Below, piece after piece: positions 11,116 to 35,733 of a stretch of DNA of 64,000 nucleotides. Under the pieces are notes generated by a model. That model worked only from the letters and a program-made list of their open reading frames with translations, was not told the origin of the DNA and searched no databases. Numbering within the stretch: the first letter of the stretch is position 1; each line of letters opens with the position of its first letter. The stretch comes from a virus. A program made the translations under genes and the position numbers. The stretch spans positions 1-64,000 of IMG/VR virus record IMGVR_UViG_3300034418_007243; one strand, written 5' to 3'.

Positions 11116-11143
11116 ATATATAATCAAAAAAATTTTAAACGTC

Positions 11144-11437
11144 ATGAGTAAAAACCAACAACAAGACTCTGAGCAAAAACTTACCTCAGAGCAAATTGCA
11201 CAAATCCGCAAAAACGCAATTACACATTACACAGAAGAAATTAAGTTTTTAGAGGTTCAAAATCAATATGAACAGCTACAAGCTGACATTGAAGAGCATA
11301 GATTGCGTAAAATAGTAGCTATAGCTCAACAATCTCAATTCTTTTCTCAAGATGAAGAGACTGAAGAACGCTTACAAGAAAAAGCTCCTGCTCCTCCAGC
11401 AAAAAGTGTTAGTAGAAAACTTAAAAAAACAGAATAG
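11144..11437 (+). CDS. Hypothetical coiled-coil protein
   Basis: Q/E-rich helical ORF downstream of a promoter. Confidence 0.75.
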   Translation: MSKNQQQDSEQKLTSEQIAQIRKNAITHYTEEIKFLEVQNQYEQLQADIEEHRLRKIVAIAQQSQFFSQDEETEERLQEKAPAPPAKSVSRKLKKTE

Positions 11438-16906: not shown

Positions 16907-19674
16907 TGAAAATATATAACGCTCTTGATTTAAAGAAAGGAAAAAAAGCTGAAACTAAAAGGTTGTGGGCAGTGTCACAACCTTTACAGTTTATTCCTAA
17001 AAAAGAAAAAGACACAGACTGGTGTGCATGGAACATGGACTGGTTAGAGTGGAATGGTATTAAACAGATTAGAAGAAATGCTAGAAGACTCATGAAAAAC
17101 TATAAGTTAGCAAAAGGTCTTATAGATAAAACAGATTATATTGTAGAAGAAGATAATGAAATGCTAGAGATTGTTGATCAATTAGCTATTGATGATGAAG
17201 CTCCAGCATTAGATTTAAAGTTCTATCCAATTATACCTAATGTAATAAATACATTAGTTGCTGAATTTGCAAAAAGAAATAGTAGAGTATCTTTTAGAGC
17301 TGTTGATGAGTTTACTCATAATGAAATAATGGAAGCTAAAAGAGCAGAAATAGAAAGTGCTCTAGTAAAACAAGCTGAGCTAAAGTTATTAAGCAAAATG
17401 ATAGAGCAAGGAATGGATCCTCAAGATCCTGAAGTTGCTAAAATGATGCAAGAACAACTTAGTTTAGATAATATAAAAACACTACCTGAGATTAATGAAT
17501 TCTTTTCTAAAGACTATGAAGTTATAGCTGAAAAATGGGCTTCTAAACAGATGATCATTGATGAGCAAAGATTTAGAATGGATGAGTTAGAAGAAATGGC
17601 TTTTAGAGATTCTCTTATTACTGATAGAGAATTTTGGCATTTTAAGATGTTAGAAGATGATTACATACCTGAAGTTTGGAATCCAGTACTAACATTCTAT
17701 AATAAATCACCTAACTGCAGATATATATCTGATGGTAATTGGGTTGGAAAACTTGATATGATGACTGTCCCTGATGTAATAGATCATTATGGATGGTTAA
17801 TGAATGAAGAACAGTTAGCTTCATTACAACAATATTATCCTATTAGTGCTGCGGGTTATCCTATTACAGGTTATCAAAATGATGGTACATATTATGATGC
17901 TACTAAATCTTATGATTGGAATGTAGGCTCTCCATCACTAAATTATAGACAATTAACGTCTATGAGAGATAACTTTATTAATAATGGTTCTGATATAGTA
18001 AGTTGGGTTCTTGGAGAGAGTGAAGATTATGGAACTGAGTGGGTTACCAACATGATGCGTGTAACCACAGCTTATTGGAAATCACAACGTAAAGTAGGAC
18101 ACCTTACTAAAATAGATGAGACAGGTGCTGTAACTACAGATATTGTAAGTGAGGAATATACTATAACAGACAAACCCATCTATAATAATGAACTTATAAA
18201 GAATAAAAATACTTCTACGCTTGTTTTTGGTGAGCATATAGAGTGGATTTGGATAAATCAAGTTTGGGGCGGTGTAAAAATAGGCCCTAATGCACCTACA
18301 TTTTTAGGAGCAGAAACAAACGGAATAAATCCTATATACTTAGGTATTAATCAAAATCATATAGCGCCATTAAAATATCAATTTAAAGGAGAAAATACTT
18401 TATATGGTTGTAAGCTTCCTGTAGAAGGTAAGATTTTTTCAGACAGAAATACTAGGTCTACATCATTAGTGGATATGATGAAGCCTTTTCAGATTGGTTA
18501 TAACATTGTAAATAATCAGATAGCAGATATACTTGTTGATGAAATAGGTACAGTAGTTATGATAGATCAAAATACTTTACCAAAACATTCTTTAGGAGAA
18601 GATTGGGGTAAAGGTAATTTAGCTAAAGCATACGTAGCTATGAAAGACTTTAGTATGCTTCCGCTAGATACGTCTATTACTAATACAGAAAATGCACTAA
18701 ATTTCCAGCATTTTCAACAACTTGATTTATCTCAGACAGGTAGATTAATGTCTAGAATTCAGTTAGCTCAATTTTTTAAACAACAAGCTTTTGAAGTTGT
18801 AGGTGTTAATCCACAAAGACTTGGACAACAAATAGGTCAAACAGAAACTGCTACTGGTATTGAACAAGCTGTATCTGGATCTTATGCGCAAACAGAAATG
18901 TATTTTATAGAGCATTCAGACTATTTAATGCCTAGAGTTCATGAAATGCGTACAGATTTAGCTCAATTTTATCATTCAACAAAACCTTCTGTTAGATTAC
19001 AGCACATGACTAGCAATGATGAAAGAGTAAATTTTGAAATTAATGGTACAGATCTTTTACTAAGAGATATAAATGTTTATTGCTCAACAAAAGCTAATCA
19101 TAGAAAAATACTTGAGCAAATGAAACAATTAGCTGCTAGCAATAATACTACAGGAGCTAGTATATATGATTTAGGAGAAATAATTCAGTCTGACTCAATG
19201 GCTACCTTAACTACAGCTTTAAAACGTATTGAAGATAAAGGTATGCAAAAAGCTCAAGAGCAAAGACAGCATGAACAACAAATGATGGAAATGCAAGCTC
19301 AACAAGCTGAAAAACAAAAAGCTATGGAGCTTGACTTTAAAGAAAGAGAAGCTGAAAAAGAACGCAGAAAAGATATTCTTGTTGCTGAAATTAGAGCTTC
19401 TGGTTATGGAGCAATGCAAGATTTAAATCAAAATCAACAATCTGATTTTATAGATAATATTGAAAAGCTTAAAAAGACTGAGCAATATCAAGAAACTATA
19501 AACTTGCAAAGAGAAAAAGCAAGTGATAGACGCAATGAGCAATATGAAAAACTCAACCTCAAAAGAGAAGAACTTGCTTTAAAAAGAGATATGAAAAATA
19601 AAGATCTTGAGATTGCTAGGGAAAATAAAAATCAGTATGATATCCCAAAAAAGAAGAAAAATAAAGAAGACTAA
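16906..19674 (+). CDS. Portal protein
   Basis: 922 aa after terL; YPIIPNVIN.L, S.VD.MKPFQI.YN, G...QR.G, C-terminal coiled-coil barrel. Confidence 0.88.
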   Translation: MKIYNALDLKKGKKAETKRLWAVSQPLQFIPKKEKDTDWCAWNMDWLEWNGIKQIRRNARRLMKNYKLAKGLIDKTDYIVEEDNEMLEIVDQLAIDDEAPALDLKFYPIIPNVINTLVAEFAKRNSRVSFRAVDEFTHNEIMEAKRAEIESALVKQAELKLLSKMIEQGMDPQDPEVAKMMQEQLSLDNIKTLPEINEFFSKDYEVIAEKWASKQMIIDEQRFRMDELEEMAFRDSLITDREFWHFKMLEDDYIPEVWNPVLTFYNKSPNCRYISDGNWVGKLDMMTVPDVIDHYGWLMNEEQLASLQQYYPISAAGYPITGYQNDGTYYDATKSYDWNVGSPSLNYRQLTSMRDNFINNGSDIVSWVLGESEDYGTEWVTNMMRVTTAYWKSQRKVGHLTKIDETGAVTTDIVSEEYTITDKPIYNNELIKNKNTSTLVFGEHIEWIWINQVWGGVKIGPNAPTFLGAETNGINPIYLGINQNHIAPLKYQFKGENTLYGCKLPVEGKIFSDRNTRSTSLVDMMKPFQIGYNIVNNQIADILVDEIGTVVMIDQNTLPKHSLGEDWGKGNLAKAYVAMKDFSMLPLDTSITNTENALNFQHFQQLDLSQTGRLMSRIQLAQFFKQQAFEVVGVNPQRLGQQIGQTETATGIEQAVSGSYAQTEMYFIEHSDYLMPRVHEMRTDLAQFYHSTKPSVRLQHMTSNDERVNFEINGTDLLLRDINVYCSTKANHRKILEQMKQLAASNNTTGASIYDLGEIIQSDSMATLTTALKRIEDKGMQKAQEQRQHEQQMMEMQAQQAEKQKAMELDFKEREAEKERRKDILVAEIRASGYGAMQDLNQNQQSDFIDNIEKLKKTEQYQETINLQREKASDRRNEQYEKLNLKREELALKRDMKNKDLEIARENKNQYDIPKKKKNKED

Positions 19675-19819
19675 AAATATTGTAGCTATATAGTGGCAAA
19701 ATATTTTTTTTTACGTGAAGTTTTTTAAAACTTATTATATTTATTTTTCTTAGAATTGTGTATATTATTTATAGACAATATATATGTCAGTTATATAAAA
19801 CCAACAAAAATTTTTGATT

Positions 19820-21067
19820 ATGAGTGAAACACAAGAAACAACTAGTGTAAGTAAAGTAGACATTGACCTGGATGATATCTTAGGTACAGGTAATGATTCT
19901 ATTATGCTAGCTGATGAAAACACACAAGTAAAAGAAAAAACAGAGGATAAGAAAACACTTTTTGCTCCTATAGAGCAAGACATGTCTTTTTTAAACCTTG
20001 ACAAAGAAGAAGTTGTAAAAGAATCTGAAGATATTTCTAAACAAGAGGCTTATACTCAAGAAGAAATTGATACTACTCTAAAACAACCAGAAGAAATTGA
20101 AGTAGAAGAACCTGTAAATAAAGGTGGTAGACCAACAGCTATGGTATCTGCTACTAAAAATTTAATTGATAAAGGTTTGCTGCTTCCTTTTGATGATGAC
20201 AAAAAAATTGAAGAGTACACTACTGAAGATTTTGAAGAGCTTATTGCAGCTAACTTAGAACAAGTACAGAATAATCTTCAAACCGTAATGCCTCAAGAAT
20301 TTTTTGGTAATATGCCTGAAGAAATGCAACAGGCTTATCAATATATTGCCAATGGTGGTACAGATCTTAAAGCTTTATTTGGTGCGTTAGCTTCTTCTAA
20401 TGAAATGAAAGAACTTGATGTATCTAAAGAAGAACATCAAAAATATGCTATTAGAGCTTATTTATCTGCTACTAACTATGGTACTCCTGAAGAAATTGAA
20501 GATGAGATATATTCATTAGAAGATAGAGGAGAACTAGAAAAGAAAGCAAGACAGTTTAAGCCTAAGTTAGATGCTATGCAACAGCAGATTGTTAATCAAA
20601 AGCTAGCAGAACAAGAAAGACAAGCTGCTCTTAGAGCAGAACAGTCTCAAAAATATATAGAAAGTGTTTATCATGCATTAGAACCAGGAACATTAGGAGA
20701 TCTTAAAATAGATAACAGAGTTCAAAACATGTTGTATTCTGGATTAGTTCAATCTAATTATCCTTCTATTAATGGTAAGCAAACAAATTTACTTGGTCAT
20801 TTATTAGAAAAATACCAATGGGTAGAGCCTAATCACGGTCTTATAGCTGAAGCTTTGTGGCTTTTAGCAGATCCTCAAGGTTATAAATCTCAAGTAAAAG
20901 GTGTTGGTTCACAAGAAGAACAAGCTAAAGTTGTAAGAAGTTTGAAAACAGAGCAGTCAACAAGAACTACTACAAATCAAACAACTTCTGCGCAACCTGA
21001 TGCTAAAAGAACACCGCCAAAAAGAAATACAATTAACAGACCAAAAAGAAACTTTTTTGGCAGGTAA
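19820..21067 (+). CDS. Acidic scaffold-like protein between portal and major capsid
   Basis: Acidic N-terminus, helical, conserved crAss-like position; ATG at 19820. Confidence 0.7.
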   Translation: MSETQETTSVSKVDIDLDDILGTGNDSIMLADENTQVKEKTEDKKTLFAPIEQDMSFLNLDKEEVVKESEDISKQEAYTQEEIDTTLKQPEEIEVEEPVNKGGRPTAMVSATKNLIDKGLLLPFDDDKKIEEYTTEDFEELIAANLEQVQNNLQTVMPQEFFGNMPEEMQQAYQYIANGGTDLKALFGALASSNEMKELDVSKEEHQKYAIRAYLSATNYGTPEEIEDEIYSLEDRGELEKKARQFKPKLDAMQQQIVNQKLAEQERQAALRAEQSQKYIESVYHALEPGTLGDLKIDNRVQNMLYSGLVQSNYPSINGKQTNLLGHLLEKYQWVEPNHGLIAEALWLLADPQGYKSQVKGVGSQEEQAKVVRSLKTEQSTRTTTNQTTSAQPDAKRTPPKRNTINRPKRNFFGR

Positions 21068-21112: not shown

Positions 21113-22744
21113 ATGGCAACACCAAGTTTTAACAATGGACTCTTTTTAAGGGATACTTCTTATCAAGCAAGTTCACATGTAGACAGTTACCACTTAGCTA
21201 ACATGTTGAGAGATGCAGAACCTACTGATATGGGGCCAGTTGATATCTGGGCAATGACTCAAAAAGTAGAAATGCCTCTTTATCAAATGTCTAGCTTTGG
21301 TGGGAAAAATGTAATTGAAGTTGACAACATTCGTGGTGAATGGAAATGGCAAACACCTATTTCTCAAGATCTACCTTATGTTGTTGATGACGTTGAACCT
21401 CTTAATGAAAACAAAGGGGTGGATGGGCAACTATTCAAGATTAAGTTAAACACTAGAGAATTTGGTCATGGTGATATCATCACTTATGATAAATACAATG
21501 GTGTGGAACTTTTAATCTCTTCAGAAGAAGATATTCTTCCTCTAGGAGACGGTTTCTTGTATACTGTTCAGGTTGTAAACAATGACAATTACAAGTATCT
21601 AGAAAATCAATTCTTAACTCCAGGAACTAAATATTTCCGTAAAGGTTCTGCAAGAGGTGAGTATGGTGAAAGATTCTCTGACATCCAAACTAAATCTGGT
21701 TTTAGAGAATTCTATAACTATGTGGGTGGAGCTGAAGCTCACGTACACTACTCTATCTCTTCAAGAGCAGATATGGCTATCAAAGGTGGTCTTAATGCTG
21801 ATGGTACAGTTCCTGTAACAGAAATTTGGAGAAACTTTGATAAAAGCGTTGATCCTTCTATTTCTACTATTGAAGATCTAGTAAGCAAAATGGGTAAAGA
21901 CTATGTAAAAAGAGCTGTTGCAAACGGTGATCTTTCTAGATCTTTCCTTACTTCTTTAGAAGCTGCTCACTTAACTAAAATTGCTACGGATATTGAAACT
22001 TACCTAATGTGGGGACACGGTGGTAGAATTAAGCAAGATGGTCCAGATGATGTTAGATTGTCTGTGGGTCTTTGGAAGCAGCTTGATAACTCTTTCAAAA
22101 GAGTATATAACAAGTCTAGCTTTGATCTTGAATTATTCCGTGCAGAACTTTATAACTTCTATGCAGGTAAAGTTGACTTTACTGGTCCAGATCCAAAAAG
22201 AACAATTATTGTTCAAACAGGTATGGGAGGTATGAGAATGGTTAATGAAGCTATTGCAAGAGAAGCTGGTTCTACTTCGCTATTTACAATTGAAGGTTCT
22301 GAAAAATATGGAGTAGGAGCTGTAACTAGAAAAGGTATGAATCTAGGCTTTGGATTTGCATTCACTAGTTATGTGATTCCATTCCTTGCAAATGTTCAAT
22401 TTGTAATTAACCCTGCATTTGATAACGTTCATACTAATGACATTGAGAATCCAATTATTGATGGGCATCCTCTAAGTTCTTATAGCTTTATTATTTTTGA
22501 TGTTACTGATAACACAAATGATAATATTTACCTATTAAAACTTTCTTGGGATAACCAATTGAAATGGTGGTATCAAAATGGAACAATGGATTATATGGGT
22601 AGAACTCAAGGATTCCAATCTTCAGGCCAGTTTAATGGATATAGAGTTTATATGACTCAATGTATGCCAGCAATCTGGGTAAAAGATCCTACCAAGGTTC
22701 TTAAGATTGTGATGAGAAACCCAATTACAGGAGGGTCCTTCTAA
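21113..22744 (+). CDS. Major capsid protein
   Basis: 543 aa, crAss-like position, E..LMWG.GG, G.W.QL, TG.GG motifs; strong downstream terminator. Confidence 0.85.
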   Translation: MATPSFNNGLFLRDTSYQASSHVDSYHLANMLRDAEPTDMGPVDIWAMTQKVEMPLYQMSSFGGKNVIEVDNIRGEWKWQTPISQDLPYVVDDVEPLNENKGVDGQLFKIKLNTREFGHGDIITYDKYNGVELLISSEEDILPLGDGFLYTVQVVNNDNYKYLENQFLTPGTKYFRKGSARGEYGERFSDIQTKSGFREFYNYVGGAEAHVHYSISSRADMAIKGGLNADGTVPVTEIWRNFDKSVDPSISTIEDLVSKMGKDYVKRAVANGDLSRSFLTSLEAAHLTKIATDIETYLMWGHGGRIKQDGPDDVRLSVGLWKQLDNSFKRVYNKSSFDLELFRAELYNFYAGKVDFTGPDPKRTIIVQTGMGGMRMVNEAIAREAGSTSLFTIEGSEKYGVGAVTRKGMNLGFGFAFTSYVIPFLANVQFVINPAFDNVHTNDIENPIIDGHPLSSYSFIIFDVTDNTNDNIYLLKLSWDNQLKWWYQNGTMDYMGRTQGFQSSGQFNGYRVYMTQCMPAIWVKDPTKVLKIVMRNPITGGSF

Positions 22745-22760
22745 CACGTACTCATACTAT

Positions 22761-22792
22761 AAAGGGAGGGTTTAAAAGCCTTCCCTTTTTTT
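22761..22792 (+). terminator. Intrinsic terminator after the major capsid gene
   Basis: AAGGGAGGG-tttaaaag-CCTTCCCTT followed by a T-run. Confidence 0.8.
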
Positions 22793-22828
22793 AGTCAGAA
22801 TAATAAACCAACTTAAAACAATTTTAAA

Positions 22829-23962
22829 ATGCCAAGACGTAAAAAAACAGAAAACGTTGCTGGAGAAACAGTTAAAGTAACTGGATTACCTGAAGCATCA
22901 ACTGTCACAGTAGAAATTCCTGAAACATTGGATGTCCTAGAACCAATTGAAAAAAAGAAAGTGACTATAAAAGATATCTTATCTAAAGTAGGAAAAATAC
23001 AAATTAAACCTTACATAGATCCTAATTCAGAAAATATGGGTCTTGAAGATTATAGAATGGTTGTTTTTCCTGGAGTTACTCATGAAGAGCAGTTAGCTGC
23101 TATAGAAAGAAATGGAGTTGTTAGATATATTACAGGTCTTGATGAATTTGCAACAGAAGTACAGAATATTCCTGATACTTCACAAAAAAAAGCAATCATT
23201 AAGAATATTAGAATTGTTGTAGCTGATTTAGAACAAAGATTAGCTACTAATGTGCTTAATATTGATGACGCAGACTTTTGGAACAAGGTAACTTTACTTA
23301 GACCAGAAAACATTAAATTTTGGGAAAAAATAACTATGAAAGTTGGTAATGAACCCGTTCATCTCAGTCCTTTAAAAGATCCGTATGATCTTATTAAATT
23401 AATGGCAATTGAAGCTGGAGGGTTTGATCTTATTGCAAAAAGCTATGAAGATGCTCAAGCAAAAGCAAAACCACCAAAATTTTATTTAGATAAAGAAACA
23501 CAAACAGTATCTACTAAAACTATTTACAAAAAATTACGTAACAGAGCTATTAGACATCTTGATGAGCTTTATAGTAAGAATCCTAAAAAACTTCTTTATG
23601 TTACTAAAGTAGTAGATGCAAACAGTTCTACATATAAAACACATACGCCAATTGATATTTTATATGAGGCGTGTGATGAGTATATTGCAGGTAATAGTGG
23701 AGAAAAACCTAAAGTATCTGCTCAAAGATTTATAGATACTTGCTCTTTAGATATGGAAACCGTAAAACTAAAAGCTTTAGTTAAAGATGCTTCATTCTTT
23801 AGAATGATTAGTTTAAAACCAGACGGTATGTTATATCATACTAAATCATCAGCTTTATTAGGAAGAAATGTAGCTGACGTAGTTGAGTTTTTAAAGAATC
23901 CTTTGAATGAAGATTTATTAGTAAAACTTTTAGGTGAAGTTGAATCACTTTGGAATTCTTAA
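22829..23962 (+). CDS. Conserved crAss-like protein following the major capsid gene
   Basis: Synteny; C-terminal LG......V.FLKNP.N pattern. Confidence 0.7.
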   Translation: MPRRKKTENVAGETVKVTGLPEASTVTVEIPETLDVLEPIEKKKVTIKDILSKVGKIQIKPYIDPNSENMGLEDYRMVVFPGVTHEEQLAAIERNGVVRYITGLDEFATEVQNIPDTSQKKAIIKNIRIVVADLEQRLATNVLNIDDADFWNKVTLLRPENIKFWEKITMKVGNEPVHLSPLKDPYDLIKLMAIEAGGFDLIAKSYEDAQAKAKPPKFYLDKETQTVSTKTIYKKLRNRAIRHLDELYSKNPKKLLYVTKVVDANSSTYKTHTPIDILYEACDEYIAGNSGEKPKVSAQRFIDTCSLDMETVKLKALVKDASFFRMISLKPDGMLYHTKSSALLGRNVADVVEFLKNPLNEDLLVKLLGEVESLWNS

Positions 23963-25221: not shown

Positions 25222-26634
25222 ATGGCTTATTTTAATCACGCTTTTCGCAAATCTTATATTTGTACTGGTACAAATATATCAGGTTCAAATACTCCAGAAG
25301 AACCTAATACTACAGGAGGACTTATTGTTACAGCTGGGGTAAATACTTATCAACTTTCAGAACCTGGATCAACACTTGCTAAACCTGGTATTTTAGGTAT
25401 TTTTGATGCTGATACGTATCTTTCATACAGTGCTGTTGATCAAATGAATTGTTGCAAAATTATTATTGCAGGGTCTTCTCTTAAAACAAAAGACATGCAA
25501 GCAATGCATGGAGGTTACTTAGAAAGTAGTAAATCAAAAGTTATCAATCCAAAATATGTTTCTAAGTTTTGGAATGTTACTGCTCAACCTGGTTTTCAAT
25601 CTCAAACTTTAATTGGTGCAGCTCCTGTAGACTCTCCAAATGATACAGCAGATTGTCAAAAAGATTTTCTTTGTAATGAAACTTATTATTTGAGACTTGA
25701 TATTAAAGGAACAGCTCCTTTAAGATTTGCTCACCATAATATTTATCATACAGTAGATGCTTATACAGGTTGTTGTGATGATCCTGCAACACCTACTAAT
25801 GTAGATGCAGGTATTGTTTATGCAAAATGGGGACAAGCTATTGCTGATAGCCCATATCTTAAAGACTTTGTAATGCCTATTCTACTTATTACAGTAGGTG
25901 GTGTATCACAAGCATTTTATGCAACTGCTGAACAAGCAACTGCTGATGGTTTACCTGGTTCTCTTTTAATTTCTGATTATCTTGCAAGCCCAACAACTTG
26001 GCCTTCAGATGGTGGTAACCAAGCAGGTCTTCTTCTTAAAGGTGCTTACGAAGATACTAAGTTTGGAGATTGTACTTTCCAACCTTCTGATTTCTATGGT
26101 AAAAACCCACTACAAATTTTTGCTTCTGAAGTAGATCTTAATGGTGATCCATGTGAATTTGAAGGAACTTGTGTAACTAGATATTGTCAAGGTAAAATGG
26201 CAGATACTTTAGGAGAAACTGTTCTTAGAGAAATTATTATTTCTGAATCTTACTTGCAAAACTTCTTATCTACTGATTTAAGAATCAGAGAGATTACGCA
26301 AGGAACAGGTATGATTGATATTGTAGATAGAAATAGACTTTATCATAAAGCATATTTATTACACTCAGTACCAAGATTTAATAATCCAAGCGGAACATTT
26401 GACAATGATCAATATCTTGTTGAAGTTGCATTCCCAAGTTCTTATGTAAACGGTGAACTTATTATTGATCTTATAGGAGACAATGGAAATAAAGCATACG
26501 ATGCTTTCCTTCTTCAAATTCAAGGCTGGTTAAATAATTGCGGTAATAATTGTGCTACAATTACAGTTGAGAACGGAGAAGCTGAATGTGAAGATCTTGA
26601 TTATACTGATTCATCTTATCCACAAATACTATAA
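25222..26634 (+). CDS. Abundant structural protein (auxiliary capsid-like)
   Basis: Own promoter motif and terminator; lies in the structural block; HSVPRFNNP motif. Confidence 0.6.
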   Translation: MAYFNHAFRKSYICTGTNISGSNTPEEPNTTGGLIVTAGVNTYQLSEPGSTLAKPGILGIFDADTYLSYSAVDQMNCCKIIIAGSSLKTKDMQAMHGGYLESSKSKVINPKYVSKFWNVTAQPGFQSQTLIGAAPVDSPNDTADCQKDFLCNETYYLRLDIKGTAPLRFAHHNIYHTVDAYTGCCDDPATPTNVDAGIVYAKWGQAIADSPYLKDFVMPILLITVGGVSQAFYATAEQATADGLPGSLLISDYLASPTTWPSDGGNQAGLLLKGAYEDTKFGDCTFQPSDFYGKNPLQIFASEVDLNGDPCEFEGTCVTRYCQGKMADTLGETVLREIIISESYLQNFLSTDLRIREITQGTGMIDIVDRNRLYHKAYLLHSVPRFNNPSGTFDNDQYLVEVAFPSSYVNGELIIDLIGDNGNKAYDAFLLQIQGWLNNCGNNCATITVENGEAECEDLDYTDSSYPQIL

Positions 26635-26667
26635 TAGTTTTAGCATATAATTTGTATTTAGATTAAT

Positions 26668-26698
26668 GGGAGTGGAGTTTATACTCCCTCCCTTTTTT
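26668..26698 (+). terminator. Intrinsic terminator
   Basis: GGGAGTGGAGT-ttat-ACTCCCTCCC then T6. Confidence 0.75.
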
Positions 26699-26711
26699 AA
26701 TTTTAATTAAC

Positions 26712-27266
26712 ATGGCACAACACAAATTAAGCGTAGAAGCTCCTGATACTTTAAATACTTTTATCTTACGTCTAGTAGATACAAGTGTTTATGATCCTAA
26801 TATGGCTGTAGATTGTCCAATATTGGAAATAACTTTGCCAGGATTTACTCATCCTGTACAGTTTACTACACCTGATATTACAACAGGATTTATTAAAAAC
26901 TTTACTGCTTGTGATTTAGAGATTCAAACAGCTAATTGCGCTACACAATATAATGACATACCTGATGGTATATACGTTATAAAATATAGTGTTAGTCCAA
27001 ATGATGTGGTATACGTAGAGTATAACCATTTAAGGATTACCAAAGCTCTTGTAAGATATCAAGAAATTCTTTGTGATATTGATGTAGCAGCTTGTGATCC
27101 TACAGATGAAATAAGAAAAAAATTAGATTCATTAGCTTTAATCAAATCTTATTTGGAAGCGGCAAAAGCTAAAGTAGAAACTTGCCATGAACCTCAAAAA
27201 GGCATGGAACTGTTTAGTTATGCAAAAAAACTTTTAGATAAATTTGAATGTAAAAGCTGTCATTAA
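26712..27266 (+). CDS. Putative tail hub or structural protein
   Basis: D.S.Y, LEITLPGF, IPDGIY.IKYSV, helical C-terminus. Confidence 0.6.
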   Translation: MAQHKLSVEAPDTLNTFILRLVDTSVYDPNMAVDCPILEITLPGFTHPVQFTTPDITTGFIKNFTACDLEIQTANCATQYNDIPDGIYVIKYSVSPNDVVYVEYNHLRITKALVRYQEILCDIDVAACDPTDEIRKKLDSLALIKSYLEAAKAKVETCHEPQKGMELFSYAKKLLDKFECKSCH

Positions 27267-27278
27267 AAACCAACAAAT

Positions 27279-27467
27279 ATGGCTGTATGTAATAATTGCG
27301 GAAAAAAATTAGGATGCGGATGTCAAAAAAGAACAAGTCCTAAAGGAACATCTTGTTGTGCAAGTTGTGTAACAAGTGTTATTCAAAAAGAATCTGTTAC
27401 TATAACTAAAACAACAGATACACCAGCTGTAAGTGACATTAAAGTCACTACATATATTAAAAAATAA
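27279..27467 (+). CDS. Small metallothionein-like Cys-rich protein
   Basis: C..C....GCGC.........CC..C within the first 30 aa. Confidence 0.65.
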   Translation: MAVCNNCGKKLGCGCQKRTSPKGTSCCASCVTSVIQKESVTITKTTDTPAVSDIKVTTYIKK

Positions 27468-27472
27468 TGTAA

Positions 27473-29425
27473 ATGGCCGAAATAAATTACGGAAATCCAT
27501 GTAATAATTGTCCAGATGGTTATACTTGGGACCCACAGTTAGAAGAATGTGTTTTAGTAGAAACAGTTCCTGCTTTATATTCAGGTACTTTATTAAGTGT
27601 TGATAAAGCTGTTGTAAATGCTGGTTATAGTATTGGTGGTGTAAGGCTTTATGCTCCTATAGGTGCTAGTCAAATACCTATTACAAGAATAGGTACTAAT
27701 AATACTACTTTTACACTTGTAGATAATTTATTGAATCCTATTCCAATACACAGTACTGTAAGAAACAGTTTGTGGGGAACAATGACTCCTGGTTGTGATC
27801 CAACAGGTTCTCCAACTTTTGGTGGTAGATTAAATACAGTTGGTGTTTGGGCGCCAGGTATTCCTGATGGTCAAGAGCTTTGTTTTGAATTTTGTGTAAC
27901 AATAGAAGAAGGAGAGAATACACAAAAATGTATTGGTATTGCTGGAGATAATTCAGTTAAATTTTCTATAAATGGTGTTCTATTTGTAGATATTACTGCG
28001 GCTAATAATGCTCAAACAAGACCTTTTAATTACTGGCATGTTTTTCCTATTGATTTACCACCAGGCCAACATATAATTACATTATGCGGAACTAATATAT
28101 CAAGCGATGCTTCTTTTGGAGCTGAGATATATGATATAACATATAATGGATTTATAACAACTCTTTTAGATCCTGATAATGCTACTGTTCCTACTTGTGG
28201 TAATGTACCAGGAGATATAGAACCTTATTTGCTTTTTTCAACTTTAGATATGGTTGGAAAAAATGTTCCTGATCCTAATAATCCTGGTGAGTGGTCTTGT
28301 CCTGATGATCCAACTGATCCTTATGAATTAAACTCTTGTGATGGCACACCTGATTGTGTAAGAACATTAACAGCAGTTCCTGAAGAATGTTGCTATAGAG
28401 TAAAAGACTGTGAATCAGAAGATGAGTTTATAATTAAGATAAATGCCGAATGTACATCTCAAATACAAGTTTTAACTGTAGGAAGTGTTTGGACATTTGA
28501 GCTAACAGATTTAGCATGTGAATTACCTCCTTTAATTGATGGTAAATGTTATGAAGTTATAGGTTTTGAAAACCCTTGTAGTGAAACAGAAAATATATGT
28601 TATTACTGTCCTGTACAAGAAAGATTAACTTGTGATGATTGCAATCCTTGTTATAAATGTACTAATTGTAATGATGAAACAGAAATAATTTATTTTAAAT
28701 GGGGTGCTCCTCCAACAGCACCTTTAAATACAGATTTAATACATACTTTTGAGTATGCTCCAGAAAAATGCTGGTCTTGCGAAGAAATCCAATCAGGTTG
28801 TGTTCCTCCAGGAGTAGTTGAACAGTATACGTACGAGGTGTGTTCAAATTTACCTTTTGAAATAGATACTATTTTATCTGATTTAGTTTTAAATACAGGA
28901 ACTTATACTTATGAGTTTTATATAGATTCTGCACATACTACTTCATGGACAGGTAATACTGTAAGTTGGATGCCTCCATATCCTGTAGATTATGAAGGAC
29001 CTATTGAAACATTATATGTATTAATATATCAAGAAGGATGCAATACACCTGCAGAAGTTGTTTTAAATCTAGTATGGACAAATCCTTTAGAATGCGCTGA
29101 AAATTGTACTAATCCTAGAGTAGGAGATAGTATAGCGCAAATATGTGTATGTCAAGGTAACACTATAGACTTAACTCAATATAATACACTTCTGGCAAGT
29201 CCTACACATCCTTATTTTTCACTTTTTGTTTATGAGTGGTATACAGATCAAACTTTATCATCATTAGTACCTGATCCAACAAATGTAACAGTTTATGCTG
29301 TACCTATTACTTATTATCTAAAAGTGTCTTATGAAGCTTGTCAAAACTTGTGGTTCTCTGATGGTTCATTACAAGTAGTACAAATTCCAGATACTAATGA
29401 AAATTGTTTAGAAGTCTGTATATAA
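27473..29425 (+). CDS. Cys-rich putative fibre or spike protein
   Basis: CPDGY.W.....C module, PA14-like segment (AGDN.VKFSING), repeated CY.V.DC modules, Ig-like C-terminus. Confidence 0.6.
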   Translation: MAEINYGNPCNNCPDGYTWDPQLEECVLVETVPALYSGTLLSVDKAVVNAGYSIGGVRLYAPIGASQIPITRIGTNNTTFTLVDNLLNPIPIHSTVRNSLWGTMTPGCDPTGSPTFGGRLNTVGVWAPGIPDGQELCFEFCVTIEEGENTQKCIGIAGDNSVKFSINGVLFVDITAANNAQTRPFNYWHVFPIDLPPGQHIITLCGTNISSDASFGAEIYDITYNGFITTLLDPDNATVPTCGNVPGDIEPYLLFSTLDMVGKNVPDPNNPGEWSCPDDPTDPYELNSCDGTPDCVRTLTAVPEECCYRVKDCESEDEFIIKINAECTSQIQVLTVGSVWTFELTDLACELPPLIDGKCYEVIGFENPCSETENICYYCPVQERLTCDDCNPCYKCTNCNDETEIIYFKWGAPPTAPLNTDLIHTFEYAPEKCWSCEEIQSGCVPPGVVEQYTYEVCSNLPFEIDTILSDLVLNTGTYTYEFYIDSAHTTSWTGNTVSWMPPYPVDYEGPIETLYVLIYQEGCNTPAEVVLNLVWTNPLECAENCTNPRVGDSIAQICVCQGNTIDLTQYNTLLASPTHPYFSLFVYEWYTDQTLSSLVPDPTNVTVYAVPITYYLKVSYEACQNLWFSDGSLQVVQIPDTNENCLEVCI

Positions 29426-29435
29426 AATATAAATC

Positions 29436-30446
29436 ATGAATATTCCATCTACCGTAGGGTGTAATGAAGCCCCAATATTTTCAGTAGCAGATATAATAGA
29501 GTCTTTTGATTCCTGTCCTATATGTACAGAAATATGCTGGCAAGTAGTAGATTGTGAAGATCCTGAATATGTAATTTGTACTTCAGAACAAGCAGGAGCT
29601 AATGCAGCATTATGGAATTTATTTGTTGGTAGAATATTAAAATTCCAAGATCCTTTTGATGAAACAATAACTAGATGCGGATATGTTACAGAAGGAAGAT
29701 GTGTTGCTTTACCTTGTGATTTTATAGACATTCCAACAATAGATTGTTTTGATACATGTGAAGAGTGTTTGCCTCAAACACCTGTTGTAGTAACTGATTT
29801 TACACAAAGAAGTGTTTATCCCGGATATAATACTCCAGCTTGTAGACCAGATGTTTATGATAAAACAAAATGTAATTGGTCTGAGATATTATATCAAGAA
29901 ATGGCTAGTAAAAGATATGGTATAGATTTTTGCTGTACTGTAGACAGTAATAAGTGGATAATTAAAAATGAATTGATTGATTTTGCTGCAGTTACTGATT
30001 CTTCTTATTCTAATCCTATTTCTTGTAATTGTTATTTTTATACTTTTTATAATTATAATGATGTTGAATCAGGTATCATATCTAGTATTAGCACAGTTAA
30101 TTGTAACGGAGATTCAATTAGTAAAACTTTAAATCCTCCAAGTGCTTTTGTACTTTGTCAAACAGAAGAGCAACATGCTGCAGGAAATTATATTGATGTT
30201 AGTGAAATAGTTAAAGGAGAATTATGTTGCAATAATGCCGCTGAACCTAACTGCTGTAAAAAAGTTATTGTTACTGGTGTAGGAAAAGATATAACTTTTG
30301 GATATACTAATTGTGAAACAGGAGAATATGTAACTGTATCTATTGGTTTAGGTAATATAGTTATACTTAATAATTTTGATATGTGTGCTCCTTATGAAGC
30401 AGTTGGTGTTACTATAGAGTTTCCATTAGAAATAATTGACCCTTAA
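29436..30446 (+). CDS. Cys-rich putative structural protein
   Basis: F.SC..C / F.TC..C repeats, RYGI..C hub-like motif, Y.NC..G modules. Confidence 0.6.
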   Translation: MNIPSTVGCNEAPIFSVADIIESFDSCPICTEICWQVVDCEDPEYVICTSEQAGANAALWNLFVGRILKFQDPFDETITRCGYVTEGRCVALPCDFIDIPTIDCFDTCEECLPQTPVVVTDFTQRSVYPGYNTPACRPDVYDKTKCNWSEILYQEMASKRYGIDFCCTVDSNKWIIKNELIDFAAVTDSSYSNPISCNCYFYTFYNYNDVESGIISSISTVNCNGDSISKTLNPPSAFVLCQTEEQHAAGNYIDVSEIVKGELCCNNAAEPNCCKKVIVTGVGKDITFGYTNCETGEYVTVSIGLGNIVILNNFDMCAPYEAVGVTIEFPLEIIDP

Positions 30447-30521
30447 ACAAATAGGAAAAGAGTAAAAAAATGTTTATATTATTAATAGCAGTCAATATCT
30501 GTAAAAAATATATTTTAAAAT

Positions 30522-32075
30522 ATGAAACCTACTAATATATACAAGCATGGGTGTGACCCAATTTCATCAAACTGTGTTATTTGGCAAGGTCCAGATATAG
30601 ATTGTATTAACTTATGTAAAGGAGATAACATAAGCACAGTAGTATATAATTTAGCTACTGAGCTTTGTACTTTAATGGATACTTTTAAGATTACTAACTA
30701 TGATCTTTCTTGTTTAAACCTTCTTCCTTGTGAGCCTAAAGACTTTCAAAGTCTTATTCAACTTCTTATAGATAAAGTATGTACTTGTTGTGATGTAACC
30801 CCTGTGCCTGATCCTGGAACGGGAACTTTAGGATGTCCTGATTGTGAAGTTCCTATATGTTCTGTATTTTATTATACAAATCCTCAAGGAGATACAGTTA
30901 CCTCAATGCAATTAACAGATTATGTTCAAGCTATAGGTAATAAAGTTTGCTCAATTGTATCACAAATTGCTACTATAAATCTTACTTTAGATAATCATGA
31001 AAATAGAATTCAAGCTTTAGAGGGCGGGAGTTCTGGAGGAGGTAGTGGGGGAACAACACTTCCAACAGTTACTCCTTGCTCTGAAATAAATTTACCACCA
31101 GAACAAGCTCAACTAGATGTAGCATTACAACAATTAATGGATCAATATTGTACTTTTGTAAATATTGTTGGTAAACCTTTAGATATTTATGCAAGTTTAG
31201 CTTTTCAATGTACAGGTTTATCTGTATTACCACAATTAGCTAATCCTGCATCTAATATGAATGCTATAACAGGATGGGAATCTGCACCTAGTACTTTAGA
31301 AGATAGTTTTAGAAATATGTGGTTAACTATTTGCGATATGAGAACTGCAATAGTAAACCTTAATAATAATTGTTGTGATACAGGATGTGATACAGTAATA
31401 ATTACTGCAGTAGCACAAAGAAATGCTACAACATCTTCAACAATAGAAATAATTTTTTCAGGAACTATTCCATCAATGTATCAAGATTGTGCAGGAGGTT
31501 CTTCTATAACTATTACAGATAGTGCTGGTGGTACAGTAACTTATTCTAATCAACTAGTTGTTGCTGCTGTTGGTAATCCTGCAGGATTATCATTTCCTTT
31601 AGCATCTGCACCAGGAATTAATCCTTCATTACAATTAACAGTAACTACTACTGCTTGTTCTGAAGCACCTTCTTTAGGAACAACTTGTCAAAATGTAATA
31701 GTATCAACAGTAGGTCCTGAAGGTCTTTGCCCAACATTACAAATAAATGTTGCAACTATAAATACAAACAGTTCTGCAGATTGGGTTATAACTAATAGTA
31801 TACCTACTAGCAATTTACCATTGACGTATGAATTAAATGTTTATGATCAAGCAGGTCTTGTTTTAATTCAACAACAAACTATAAATGTTACTACGTCATA
31901 TGCTTCTCAAACAGGTACTATTACAGGGTTAACACAAAATGAGACATATCAGTTCTTTTTACAATTAACCGGAGGCACATATTCTCCTTGTCCTGCTGTT
32001 ACTTTCTTAGTTCCTGGTGGTCCTTGTGAGCCTTGTGAAATTGGTCAAATAACAATAACTGAAAACCCAGCATAA
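30522..32075 (+). CDS. Cys-rich putative tail fibre with coiled coil and FN3-like C-terminus
   Basis: SS.CV.WQGP.I.C, HENRIQALE trimerisation-type coil, ITGLT.N.TY. Confidence 0.65.
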   Translation: MKPTNIYKHGCDPISSNCVIWQGPDIDCINLCKGDNISTVVYNLATELCTLMDTFKITNYDLSCLNLLPCEPKDFQSLIQLLIDKVCTCCDVTPVPDPGTGTLGCPDCEVPICSVFYYTNPQGDTVTSMQLTDYVQAIGNKVCSIVSQIATINLTLDNHENRIQALEGGSSGGGSGGTTLPTVTPCSEINLPPEQAQLDVALQQLMDQYCTFVNIVGKPLDIYASLAFQCTGLSVLPQLANPASNMNAITGWESAPSTLEDSFRNMWLTICDMRTAIVNLNNNCCDTGCDTVIITAVAQRNATTSSTIEIIFSGTIPSMYQDCAGGSSITITDSAGGTVTYSNQLVVAAVGNPAGLSFPLASAPGINPSLQLTVTTTACSEAPSLGTTCQNVIVSTVGPEGLCPTLQINVATINTNSSADWVITNSIPTSNLPLTYELNVYDQAGLVLIQQQTINVTTSYASQTGTITGLTQNETYQFFLQLTGGTYSPCPAVTFLVPGGPCEPCEIGQITITENPA

Positions 32076-32977
32076 TGAATAAAAATTGCGGACATACTAT
32101 ACCTTGCGGCTGTAATGATACACCTTTGACTACAGGATCTCCTTGTGGTCAAGGTGTAGATTGCACAGGTAACCCGTGTCCAGAAAATTTTGATTCTAAA
32201 TGTATTTATTACAGAGGAGATATAATTTTATGTGGTGAAGATGAAGTTGTTCAAACAGATGTAACTTTAGCTGAAGCTTTAAATTCTTTAGTTACTTATT
32301 TTTGTAATCAAGGTGGTGGTGGAGTCATTTCTGAATCATTAATTTGTGGAGATACAACAATTGCTGTTGCAGGAACTTCAGTTAGTGAAGCTTTGACAAG
32401 TGTTGTGGGTTTCTTTTGTTCTATTGTAACTGAATTAGTTAACTCTTATAATTATGGTTTATTTGCACAAGTTGAAGATTCTTTAACTGTTATAAATACA
32501 ACAACACCATCAACTATTATAGGTGTAGGAGACGGTACATTAAGCGTACCAGCAGGAGGTTTTAAAGTTGCTGATTCTTTTGAAGTAAAAACATTTGGTC
32601 ATATAAGTTCTGCTAATAACCAAGTGTTTTATATACGTTTAAAAATAAACGGAGTTGTAGCAGATGAAATAGCTTTAGATGGAATAACTCATACTAGATT
32701 GCCTCAAATTACAGATTTACATTGGAGCATGGAAATGTATTTTACTATAAGAAGTTTAAATACAGCTCCTAATTCTGGAGATGCGGCTATTCTTTCTGCT
32801 ATAAGATTTACTCATGAATCAGATGCTTCTGATAAATTTAATGGGTATGCTTCAACAATGCTTGTTAATTTTGATTCTGATATACCACAAACATTAGATT
32901 TAGAAGTTGAATGGGGTGCTGCAAGTGCTTCAAATTCTATATATTCTGAATCTTTTGTTTTAAATAAAACATATTAA
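32075..32977 (+). CDS. Putative fibre protein with Cys-rich N-terminal module
   Basis: CGH..PCGCNDTPLTTGSPC N-terminus shared with the next gene; beta-rich head. Confidence 0.6.
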   Translation: MNKNCGHTIPCGCNDTPLTTGSPCGQGVDCTGNPCPENFDSKCIYYRGDIILCGEDEVVQTDVTLAEALNSLVTYFCNQGGGGVISESLICGDTTIAVAGTSVSEALTSVVGFFCSIVTELVNSYNYGLFAQVEDSLTVINTTTPSTIIGVGDGTLSVPAGGFKVADSFEVKTFGHISSANNQVFYIRLKINGVVADEIALDGITHTRLPQITDLHWSMEMYFTIRSLNTAPNSGDAAILSAIRFTHESDASDKFNGYASTMLVNFDSDIPQTLDLEVEWGAASASNSIYSESFVLNKTY

Positions 32978-32979
32978 CT

Positions 32980-33504
32980 ATGGGAAAAACATGTGGACAT
33001 TTAGTACCTTGTGGTTGTAATGACACTCCGCTTACAACAGGTTCTCCTTGTAATGATGGTATTCAATGTCAAGGAAATCCTTGCGCTGAAAATTTTTGTG
33101 CTGAATGTATAGTATGGTGTGGTCCTGGCTTACCTAATTTAGGTATAAAAACAGGTATGAATTTATATACTGTATTTCAATTACTAGATAGTAATATTGA
33201 TTCAGTATCTTGTGTAGATGATAGCGATTCTTGTAAAGCTGTATTGTTAGGTTTACCAACAGTTACATCTAGCACAATTAATATTTCATTCACACCAATT
33301 TCTACAGCTAGCCAAACTCGTACTTTATATTTAACAGAAGTTAGTACAGGAACTGTAACACCTTATGTTATTGATACTGGCGCTACAGAAATACTAATAG
33401 AATTTTTAGCTGCAGATTCAGAATATAAATTATTTATTACATCAGTATGTACAGATCTTACAGAATGTAGTTCTGCAGAATTATTAATTAAAACTTTAAA
33501 ATAA
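32980..33504 (+). CDS. Putative fibre protein with Cys-rich N-terminal module and FN3-like domain
   Basis: N-terminal ~45 aa paralogous to 32075-32977; L.ADSEY FN3-like strand. Confidence 0.6.
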   Translation: MGKTCGHLVPCGCNDTPLTTGSPCNDGIQCQGNPCAENFCAECIVWCGPGLPNLGIKTGMNLYTVFQLLDSNIDSVSCVDDSDSCKAVLLGLPTVTSSTINISFTPISTASQTRTLYLTEVSTGTVTPYVIDTGATEILIEFLAADSEYKLFITSVCTDLTECSSAELLIKTLK

Positions 33505-33505
33505 T

Positions 33506-34444
33506 ATGGCTTGTTTAAATGTAACAATAGAAGTTGAATATACACCATCAGGTACTGGAGGTCAAGATATTGAAATAGGATGGAGAGCACAGGGAGATCC
33601 AACATGGAATATTACAACTGCTATAGGTATAGGAGGTGCAATGGGAGTTTTTATACAAACTGTACCTTGTAATACAAATTGTGATGGTCAACTTTATGAA
33701 CTTTATATAGGTAATTTATGTGATTTGCCTGGGACTACTGTTTATTTTGAAGTAATGGTTGCCGATTCTACACAACCTGATTGTTATGAATATCAATGGG
33801 ACTGCGTTTCTGTAGGTATAGGATCTATAACTCCTAATCCAGGAAGTGCTAATTATAATTCTGGTGATTCTGTTGTATTTACAGGAGGAGGTGGTTCTGG
33901 AGCATCAGCTATTGTAGATGTAGTAAATGGTTCAGGAGAGATATTATCTTATTCTATTTTAGATCCAGGAACAGGCTATACTTCATTACCAACTCTTAAT
34001 GTTGTTAGTATAAATGGAACTGGAGCAACACCTGTAGCAGTTTTAGCAGATTGTCCTACTTTAAATCATTTAGATTGTACAGGTATTACAGAACCTATTA
34101 GTATAGCTTTAGGAGAAAGTTATATTGAATGTGCTACTCAAGCTATTTATGCAGGTAAAGTTGCTGCTTTAACTGATGATGAAAAAACAGCTTATGAATA
34201 TAATCCTATAGGAACTAACTGTATTTGTAATAATGATTGTAATGAGTTTACAATAAATAATACAGGAGTAGATACTTTAACAGTAGTATATAATACATGT
34301 ATTGATGGAGCATTAGTAGTGCAAGAAGTACCTGCTGCAGGTAGTTGGAGTTCTCCTTGTGAAGCGTTGTGTGAAACAATAAGCGTATTAGAAACGGATG
34401 CTTCATATACAATATCTCCTGCATGTACAGCATGTATACCATAA
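33506..34444 (+). CDS. Cys-rich putative structural protein
   Basis: GGGGSGASA....G.I....I..PG.GYTS.P virion-type repeat plus Cys modules. Confidence 0.6.
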   Translation: MACLNVTIEVEYTPSGTGGQDIEIGWRAQGDPTWNITTAIGIGGAMGVFIQTVPCNTNCDGQLYELYIGNLCDLPGTTVYFEVMVADSTQPDCYEYQWDCVSVGIGSITPNPGSANYNSGDSVVFTGGGGSGASAIVDVVNGSGEILSYSILDPGTGYTSLPTLNVVSINGTGATPVAVLADCPTLNHLDCTGITEPISIALGESYIECATQAIYAGKVAALTDDEKTAYEYNPIGTNCICNNDCNEFTINNTGVDTLTVVYNTCIDGALVVQEVPAAGSWSSPCEALCETISVLETDASYTISPACTACIP

Positions 34445-34471
34445 TTAATTTATGAAATTTATTATTAAAGA

Positions 34472-34549
34472 TATGTCATGGTTTGTTGGTTTATACTATG
34501 ACTGACAGCTGAAAGCTCTTGTTTAATTATACAAGGGCTTTCTTTTTTT
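34472..34549 (+). ncRNA. Candidate antisense small RNA ending in an intrinsic terminator
   Basis: Hairpin GTCATGG/CTATGAC with loop TTTGTTGGTTTATA, then TGACAGCT and terminator GAAAGCTCTTGT/ACAAGGGCTTTC-T7; complementary to four gene leaders. Confidence 0.55.
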
Positions 34550-34563
34550 AAAAACTAATAGTA

Positions 34564-35733
34564 ATGACACTAGAACAATTAAAAGATTTTTTCAGAAAGA
34601 AACCTGGCTATATAAAAAGAGGTGCTGGTTGGCTGGCTGATTTTTTAGAGCTTGATGATTTGGATAAAATTAAACGTGCTAAAACGGAAGTGGCTGCTGA
34701 GATTAAGAAAGATGTGATGATGGGTGATGATAGTAAGAAACTCCGTCTGAAATCCACATGGCAAGTGCAAAAGAAAGGTGGAGAAGTTGAGTGGTTAGAA
34801 AGTTATAAAGCTGTAGAACAAAGTGAATACCAACTTACAAAAGAAGATTGGGAGAATATTATAGATAAGGTTGGTAATATATCTATTACTTATAATAAAG
34901 AGACAACTCTTCCGTCTAATAACAAGGCTTTGATTATATGGACTTCTGATAAACATATAGGAGCTTCTATACCTGATGATGCTCTTTATAAAAAGAAGTA
35001 TGATGAGCATGTGTTTTTTAGTAGAATGGAAAAGATATACCAAAAGGCTATGTCTTTGTTTCAAACCTATGGTATATTTGATAAGCTTATAGTGGCTGAT
35101 CTTGGAGATTCTTTAGATGGCTATAATGCTCAGACTACAAGAGGTGGTCATGATCTTCCTCAAAACTTAAATAATAAAGAAGCTGCTCAAGTACATTTTT
35201 ATACTCACAAATGGTTTTATGAACAACTTCTTAATTCAGGTATCTCAAAGGAATTAGAAGTTGTACACATATCTAATGATAATCATGCAGGTGATTTTGG
35301 TTGGCAAGCATCTTTTGCTTTACAGCAATACGGTAGTGTTGCGTATCCTGATATAAAGTTTACTATACCAGAAGAGTTTTTATCACACTTTGTTTTATAT
35401 GACAGAGCTTACATTATTACTCATGGTAAGGATAAGAAAAACAGAAAGCACGGACTTCCCTTAAAAATCAATGCAGATACAGAATCTTTCTTAATGGATT
35501 ACGTTATAGATAGAAAACTAGGTAACTACAAAATTCATGTAAGGAAAGGAGATTTGCACATGAATGATTTAGATTGTAGCAGAATGAAAATGACTTACTG
35601 GAACATTGGTTCTATCTTTGGAGCTTCAGATTGGATAATGGATAATTACAGTATGACAAAGGCTTCTTGTGTGTTTGAAATAGTAGAAAAAGAATCTGAA
35701 ACATTAAACGCTCAAATTTTTTGGTTATCTTAA
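34564..35733 (+). CDS. Calcineurin-like metallophosphoesterase
   Basis: SDKHIG, LGD.LDG, NDNH, THG, GDLH motifs. Confidence 0.8.
   Translation: MTLEQLKDFFRKKPGYIKRGAGWLADFLELDDLDKIKRAKTEVAAEIKKDVMMGDDSKKLRLKSTWQVQKKGGEVEWLESYKAVEQSEYQLTKEDWENIIDKVGNISITYNKETTLPSNNKALIIWTSDKHIGASIPDDALYKKKYDEHVFFSRMEKIYQKAMSLFQTYGIFDKLIVADLGDSLDGYNAQTTRGGHDLPQNLNNKEAAQVHFYTHKWFYEQLLNSGISKELEVVHISNDNHAGDFGWQASFALQQYGSVAYPDIKFTIPEEFLSHFVLYDRAYIITHGKDKKNRKHGLPLKINADTESFLMDYVIDRKLGNYKIHVRKGDLHMNDLDCSRMKMTYWNIGSIFGASDWIMDNYSMTKASCVFEIVEKESETLNAQIFWLS

Follow-up and report, generated by a model that had tools for sequence, protein, structure and literature searches.

The DNA analyzed here, hereafter the window, comprises the first 64 kb (64,000 nucleotides) of an IMG/VR virus record of 109,874 bp with direct terminal repeats. 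It comes from an uncultured phage whose gene layout, as read from the sequence, is crAss-like, with a terminase (14705-16906), a portal (16906-19674), an MCP (21113-22744), a tail module, and, beginning at 39958, a series of giant proteins. Among cultured phages, Leptolyngbya phage Lbo-JY46 has the closest MCP, with 29% identity. Strong terminators at 22761, 26668, and 34511 cut the late block. The tail-module proteins at 25222-34444 have an unusually high Cys content, with many invariant Cys residues in the N-terminal domain that they conserve (alignment A2); a 62-aa microprotein discussed below is likewise rich in Cys.

The element considered here lies at 34475-34549, in the 119 nt that separate two + strand ORFs, 33506-34444 and 34564-35733. 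The former, the last ORF of the tail module, has weak matches to tail and virion-structural families. The latter encodes an exonuclease-like protein (PHROG 284 / 22398) and begins 14 nt past the T-run of the element, with no promoter-like site ahead of it. It is found in 0 of the 25 related records searched, and is therefore probably an accessory insertion that relies on read-through. The use of the flanking proteins as anchors for the locus was consequently given up, the exonuclease-like protein being absent from these 25 records and the 312-aa tail protein from 5.

The element consists of three parts on the + strand. A hairpin at 34475-34502, with its 5' arm at 34475-34481 and its 3' arm at 34496-34502, holds the core UUUGUUGGUUU (34482-34492) in its loop. 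The stem has 7-8 bp, one extra pair (34482/34495) being present in the window genome, and the loop is 11 nt long and U/G-rich. The hairpin is followed by a single-stranded A/C-rich spacer of 8 nt (34503-34510, delimited from the family alignments) and by an intrinsic terminator (34511-34549) found by a terminator scan. The latter is composed of a GC-rich stem-loop at 34511-34542, with a 12-bp stem (5 GC pairs) and an 8-nt loop, and of a run of seven T at 34543-34549 on the transcribed strand. For the fold on the + strand, the z-score is -4.4, and the element occurs once in the window genome. The hairpin starts 31 nt past the stop codon (34442-34444) of the last tail-module ORF, and no promoter-like site was found upstream of it in the window.

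A search of Rfam at a permissive threshold returned only noise, the best match being PyrR, with 19.9 bits where the family threshold is 54, and no E-value falling below 0.63. Near and distant DNA searches of GenBank phages with the element region gave nothing useful, and nothing relevant was found in the literature on the leader motif described below or on sRNAs of crAss-like phages.

Relatives were collected in two ways. A search of IMG/VR with the MCP returned more than 590, of which 80 were kept, and 80 further loci, referred to as anchored loci, were fetched via the conserved N-terminal domain of the tail protein encoded at 30522-32075. A scan of IMG/VR with an exact 19-nt pattern retrieved 4 contigs only; such a pattern is too strict for this element, and a covariance model is needed, because the stems covary. 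Inverted copies of the leader motif are rare among the relatives, yet each genome has a single one at a fixed place. Thirteen related records extending 9-15 kb past the MCP contain TTTGTTGGTTT as an exact match a single time, on the gene-sense strand, just past the stop of the last tail-module ORF and in the loop of a 6-8 bp hairpin, and a short A/C-rich spacer and a GC-rich terminator follow on the 3' side. The covariance model built from the alignment of these 13 sequences finds loop-variant copies in five long records that lack the exact loop. Applied to the 80 anchored loci, it gives 65 strong matches, each of them single-copy and all on the gene-sense strand, after the stop of the last tail-module ORF and before a terminator. 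Four of the remaining loci are divergent but full-length, 10 are cut off before the site, and the element is missing from one locus, that of a relative whose MCP is 58% identical (G030). The element is thus present in nearly every related record examined that extends far enough, and its arrangement of hairpin, spacer, and terminator is conserved along with it, in agreement with an earlier note on this DNA, which had described a hairpin ahead of a strong terminator in the window.

No cultured close relative was found among GenBank phages, either by tblastn with the anchor domain or by blastn with a consensus-like hairpin. A possible distant copy is predicted by the family model (R1) in Lbo-JY46 (PP438436.1 91572-91642, minus strand; L219:1500-1575), with E = 3.3e-4. 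It is an AU-stem hairpin with the loop UUUGUUGGUUG, followed by a terminator, and lies on the late-gene strand in a 410-nt non-coding gap. The Lbo-JY46 leaders adjoining the MCP are CAA-rich and without the ACCAAC core, and the ACCAACAA matches inspected on the late-gene strand of this phage are inside giant ORFs, none being in leaders.

The two helices are well supported by covariation. In the 13-sequence alignment, 97.8% of the cells of helix 1 (the hairpin) are paired and compensatory changes are seen in 6 of its 7 pairs, while sliding the 3' partner by 1-3 columns as a control leaves 22-60% paired, almost without compensatory changes. With 56 distinct sequences, helix 1 is 95.1% paired and helix 2 (the terminator) 96.1%, with compensatory changes in 7/7 and 6/6 pairs, respectively; for both helices together the values are 95.6% and 13/13, which none of 500 shuffles in the control attained. 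Helix 1 also contains about 50 G-U cells that would be A-C mismatches if read on the opposite strand, which argues that the folded molecule is the mRNA-sense RNA. The + strand assumed in the earlier note is hence the functional one, and the sequences that this note quoted are all present where it placed them.

The same data bear on an alternative that the note had raised, namely that the locus is a fifth, inverted copy of a promoter, operator, or leader motif, acting at the DNA level on the minus strand together with a mini-ORF. On that strand of the window genome the motif is indeed followed by an ATG and a 4-codon ORF (ATG-ACA-TAT-CTT-TAA), and a 64-aa minus-strand ORF begins at 34442. However, the ATG lies within the covarying stem and is replaced in the relatives, the stems preserve pairing rather than sequence, with G-U pairs that are valid on the + strand only, and the upstream region is non-homologous among the relatives. 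Both minus-strand ORFs were discarded, and we consider this alternative very improbable.

The position of the element is that expected of a 3'-UTR-derived base-pairing sRNA: it is sense-stranded, follows a stop codon, and ends with the intrinsic terminator of the mRNA. In the relatives, the hairpin starts about 5-30 nt past the stop of the upstream tail gene, and these upstream genes are non-homologous. Since the distance is kept behind unrelated genes, and since no promoter-like site is present, the element is better described as part of a 3' UTR than as a separate gene. The free-standing sRNA gene that had been envisaged does not fit these loci, which leave no room for a dedicated promoter. 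We also observed, on comparing 34380-34470 of the window with L092:4830-4980, a contig whose sequence downstream of the hairpin is 99% identical and whose upstream tail gene has a different 3' end. This contrast, together with the non-homologous preceding genes in the relatives, indicates that a swappable tail-fibre module has one of its recombination boundaries at the hairpin.

The complement of the hairpin loop is AAACCAACAAA, and it is at the starts of late genes that this sequence is found. When the reverse complement of 34482-34510 is aligned locally with the whole 109.9-kb genome, scores of 33, 30, 26, and 23 are obtained for the leader of the gene between portal and MCP (19781), the start of ORF 11144 (11141), the leader of the Cys-rich microprotein (27251), and the leader of the gene after the MCP (22791), respectively. 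The top scores of 20 Markov-2 shuffles have a mean of 23.7 and a maximum of 27, so two of the four matches are above chance, one is borderline, and one, the post-MCP leader, is at chance. In the window, the 11-mer by itself, with one mismatch allowed, shows no enrichment (6 occurrences vs 4.0 expected). Simple duplex energies of the element with 105 crude gene starts of the genome point in the same direction for the leader between portal and MCP, which has an energy of -28.6 kcal/mol and ranks 1/105, the best of 100 shuffled elements reaching -26.8. The post-MCP leader ranks 7/105, and by duplex energy only the former leader is clearly above chance in the window genome.

The relatives settle what the window genome by itself does not. 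In 80 of them, nearly all copies of AAACCAACAAA, with one change allowed, are on the gene-sense strand and directly 5' of start codons, the end of the motif being usually about 3-6 nt from the ATG. Counting motif cores within 25 nt of the ATG in orthologous leaders, we find the core upstream of the gene intervening between portal and MCP in 62 of 74 leaders and upstream of the post-MCP gene in 53 of 55. The motif is also present 5' of the Cys-rich microprotein in relatives, and in the orthologues of ORF 11144 the ATG is kept, with the motif located after it in the first codons. Because the same motif stands at orthologous gene starts in about 80 relatives, we take the four sites in the window to be real. 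The earlier note's four initiation-region matches thus hold as a conserved set, although the one at 22794 is indistinguishable from chance in the window genome alone (score 23, rank 7).

The weaker match that had been reported at the MCP start does not withstand the same comparison, the motif core being upstream of the MCP in 0 of 78 leaders. The difference between 62/74 and 53/55 on the one hand and 0/78 on the other argues that the motif is a gene-specific tag and not a general feature of strong leaders. That specific genes carry it and the MCP, whose expression is the highest, never does points to a role in regulation and not simply to strength.

In the window, the leader between portal and MCP spans 19785-19822 (+ strand, ATG at 19820) and contains a first block at 19786-19796 and AAACCAACAAA at 19798-19808; it is the best predicted target. 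Its gene is called the scaffold gene by position only, and searches of Pfam and PHROGs with the target genes returned no family. The post-MCP gene leader (22794-22831, + strand, ATG at 22829) lies directly past the MCP terminator and carries the shortened motif AAACCAAC at 22804-22811. The leader of the 62-aa Cys-rich microprotein (27255-27281, + strand, ATG at 27279) has the motif at 27267-27277, one base 5' of the ATG, and forms with the hairpin one terminator-bounded unit from 26.7 to 34.5 kb. At the start of the 97-aa ORF 11144-11437 (11141-11162, + strand), the motif is 3' of the ATG, in codons 3-7. No GGAGG-type ribosome-binding site is obvious by eye in the leaders inspected. The element is not a cis-antisense RNA of these targets, as it is on the gene-sense strand and the targets are 7-23 kb distant.

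Several further features of the leaders were observed. At 19757-19768 of the window, and in relatives (e.g., L007:8650-8700), a conserved TTG is followed after 2-3 bases by TATATTA, resembling an extended -10 element. This box, which is 20-35 nt 5' of the motif in the scaffold-position leader, is a candidate for the middle or late promoter of the clade, and many relatives have a similar TTTG...TAGTATATTA box after the hairpin terminator. The scaffold-position leader also contains, at 19784-19798, a 4-codon upstream ORF (ATG TCA GTT ATA TAA) that overlaps the first block, and mini-ORFs initiated by ATGTCAG are present in several relatives, not in all. On the other genome arm, beyond the window, a repeated AACCAA-type leader ending in ATG, AAACCAAAACAAAGATG, is found at G000 85058 and 85411 (minus strand), and an AACCAA-type leader, AACCAACTCAAAATG, at G027 83.7-100 kb. 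These leaders on the other arm indicate that the leader style is wider than the late targets, and for the same reason the motif may serve these phages more generally as a translation signal, with the loop merely mirroring it.

The exact inverted copy of the motif is expected about 0.05 times in the genome, as estimated from base composition, while the hexamer GUUGGU at the core of the loop is invariant in 65 of 65 strong hits. An invariant loop that mirrors the most conserved leader motif of the clade makes a chance match very unlikely, and this is one of several observations for which we consider the complementarity probably functional. The loop behaves as a conserved single-stranded seed, in agreement with its earlier description as a seed matching late-gene starts.

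Seed and targets are also co-conserved, as a check proposed in the earlier note had called for, with few joint changes. In two genomes the loop has A for G before UUGGU, and the Cys-microprotein leader reads ACCAAU; in one genome with the loop UUGGUUGGU, the leader is ACCAACCAA. There are counter-examples as well, with the loops UUAAGUUGGU or UUAGUUGGU standing alongside ordinary ACCAACAAA leaders. The comparison of the Cys-microprotein leader with loop variants is thus mixed, some matching and some not, and flanking loop positions vary unmatched. As some loop variants have no counterpart in the leaders, the universal pairing comprises only 7-8 nt.

A second pairing block of 9-12 bp, between the hairpin 3' arm plus spacer and the 5' part of the scaffold-position leader (block 1), is present in about one third of 39 genomes, the window genome included. 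Its letters change by lineage: GUCAGU in the leader is opposite ACUGAC in the hairpin, in G013 GUCAAU is opposite AUUGAC, and in a further pair GUUAGUCA is opposite UGGCUAAC, with one wobble pair. Duplexes with the own leader are stronger than those with leaders of other genomes, both for the whole element (p=0.005) and for block 1 alone (p=0.005, 39 genomes), in permutations in which shared ancestry is not corrected for. Block 1 starts 4-7 nt after the TATATTA box, at the point where the 5' end of the mRNA would be expected.

These joint changes are relevant to two other explanations of the hairpin. According to the first, a phage or host protein binds to it, or it is simply a hairpin that stabilizes the 3' end or assists the terminator, and the complementarity has no pairing function. 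An invariant loop on a covarying stem is a signature of protein-binding hairpins too, and the variation of flanking loop positions without matching leader changes would be in line with such a role. Against this, the invariant 11-nt loop is exactly complementary to the most conserved leader motif, the extended block and the leader change together, the rare loop variants are matched by leader variants, and hairpin and motif are jointly absent in G030, so that we regard a protein site or plain 3'-end hairpin as quite improbable. According to the second explanation, the hairpin mimics a tRNA D-arm and acts on a tRNA-binding factor. The loop core of the whole family resembles the D-loop sequence GUUGGUU, and the divergent member L157:10262-10347 has an inner 3-bp stem around UAGUUGGUU that recalls a D-arm. 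The resemblance extends over 7 nt only, however, a 7-bp stem with an 11-15 nt loop is unlike a D-arm, there is no sign of a T-loop partner, and both the leader motif and the joint changes would be left unexplained. The similarity is probably a coincidence, and we give this explanation hardly any credence.

On the basis of the above, we consider it fairly probable that the element acts as an anti-leader RNA in the 3' UTR and, by pairing, represses translation. In this mechanism, the last transcript of the tail module would end in an untranslated 3' part made up of the loop hairpin, the spacer, and the intrinsic terminator, and the loop would pair with AAACCAACAAA at a fixed set of late genes, namely the scaffold-position gene, the post-MCP gene, the Cys microprotein gene, and the 97-aa ORF 11144. 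In the window phage and about one third of the lineages, the pairing could run on through the 3' arm and the spacer and cover the whole 5' UTR of the scaffold-position gene with about 22-25 bp. The acting form might be the element within the long mRNA or a processed short RNA of about 75-80 nt. The outcome would be repressed translation, with or without cleavage of the duplex, and the end of the virion-gene block would thereby feed back negatively on the head-assembly genes. What the sequences show directly is the structure and its strand, the conservation, the complementarity, the restriction of the motif to certain genes, and some joint changes; we infer that the element is transcribed, that the pairing takes place in vivo, and that its effect is negative. 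A duplex within the ribosome footprint favours repression, and repression is the most likely effect here because the predicted duplex is inside the ribosome landing site and abuts the start codon. On all targets other than the Cys-microprotein leader the action would have to be in trans; the strong terminators at 22761 and 26668 lie between the hairpin and the scaffold-position and post-MCP leaders.

The main rival of repression keeps the pairing and reverses its purpose: the 3'-UTR hairpin would stabilize or activate the mRNAs, by protecting their 5' ends or by looping the mRNA, without release of an sRNA. The 3' translation enhancers of plant RNA viruses, which employ loop-loop pairing, can serve as a model. 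Such a role would account for the fact that the complementarity begins at the expected mRNA 5' end, 4-7 nt after TATATTA, in about one third of the lineages, as well as for the presence of the hairpin and the Cys-microprotein leader in a single terminator-bounded unit and for the lack of a promoter 5' of the hairpin. However, the part of the duplex that is universal ends about 3-6 nt from the ATG, inside the ribosome footprint, and the terminators at 22761 and 26668 separate the hairpin from the scaffold-position and post-MCP leaders, for which pairing in trans would again be needed. An activating or stabilizing role is therefore rather unlikely in our estimation.

If the element represses by pairing, it would constitute a new RNA family of a mechanistic kind that is already known. 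Among the 3'-UTR-derived sRNAs of bacteria are CpxQ, SroC, and DapZ. In Vibrio cholerae, the 3'-UTR-derived sRNAs OppZ and CarZ are autoregulatory (PMC7398697). By layout and logic the latter two appear to be the closest counterparts: the regulator is in the 3' UTR of a polycistronic mRNA with whose intrinsic terminator it ends, its seed is complementary to a translation start region within its own operon (here, as predicted, that of the Cys-microprotein gene), and feedback is exerted at the RNA level (here as proposed). They differ in that the present element belongs to a phage rather than a bacterium, is related to them neither in sequence nor through Rfam, and has its seed in a hairpin loop instead of a single-stranded 5' end made by RNase E. 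In addition, the phage targets have one dedicated leader motif, and some of them are in other transcription units.

With respect to the target region, the closest counterpart appears to be GibS of Bacteroides thetaiotaomicron, a base-pairing RNA that targets the start-codon region of mRNAs in a genus for which no obvious homologue of Hfq or ProQ has been found (PMC7366714). The lack of an obvious Hfq/ProQ homologue is part of the likeness, as are the pairing at the start-codon region, predicted here, and phage leaders that appear by eye to be free of a GGAGG-type site. Unlike the phage element, GibS is an intergenic host gene that is transcribed from a promoter of its own and whose seed is a long unstructured 5' stretch, and the sequences are unrelated. 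The likeness to OppZ and CarZ and to GibS is one of analogy only. Phages also have RNAs of comparable design, such as the antisense immunity RNAs c4 of P1/P7 and CI of P4, and the 3' UTR of icaR in Staphylococcus aureus pairs with its 5' UTR. In these cases too, a short structured RNA or 3' UTR is complementary to ribosome-binding or leader sites, and there are several sites per genome. Those systems serve lysogenic immunity or a single gene, however, whereas the present element is tied to virion-assembly genes in a lytic-type crAss-like genome, and no sequence relation exists.

The crAss-like phages are among the most abundant known, and the control of their late expression is poorly understood. 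The present analysis provides a candidate circuit that can be tested, composed of a single hairpin, an 11-nt motif, and the three to four genes targeted, and backed by covariation over 56 distinct family members. A new RNA family can be seeded with the family alignment (A3) and the model (R1), which can also be used as a clade marker in metagenomes, and the possible distant copy in the cultured Lbo-JY46 could serve as an experimental entry point. The results also bear on the start of translation and its regulation at leaders without an obvious Shine-Dalgarno sequence.

We put forward, more tentatively than the repression by pairing itself, the idea of a phage RNA regulon, spread over a large clade of crAss-like phages, in which a fixed set of head-assembly genes, never the MCP, carry an address in their leaders and a single anti-address RNA is located at the end of the virion block. 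No regulatory RNA of crAss-like phages was found described in Rfam or in the literature searched, and, if true, this would be the first one. In the leaders without an obvious Shine-Dalgarno sequence, a dedicated start signal would then be opposed by an RNA antagonist specific to it, and the completion of tail-gene transcription would be coupled to the shut-down or re-balancing of head-scaffold synthesis.
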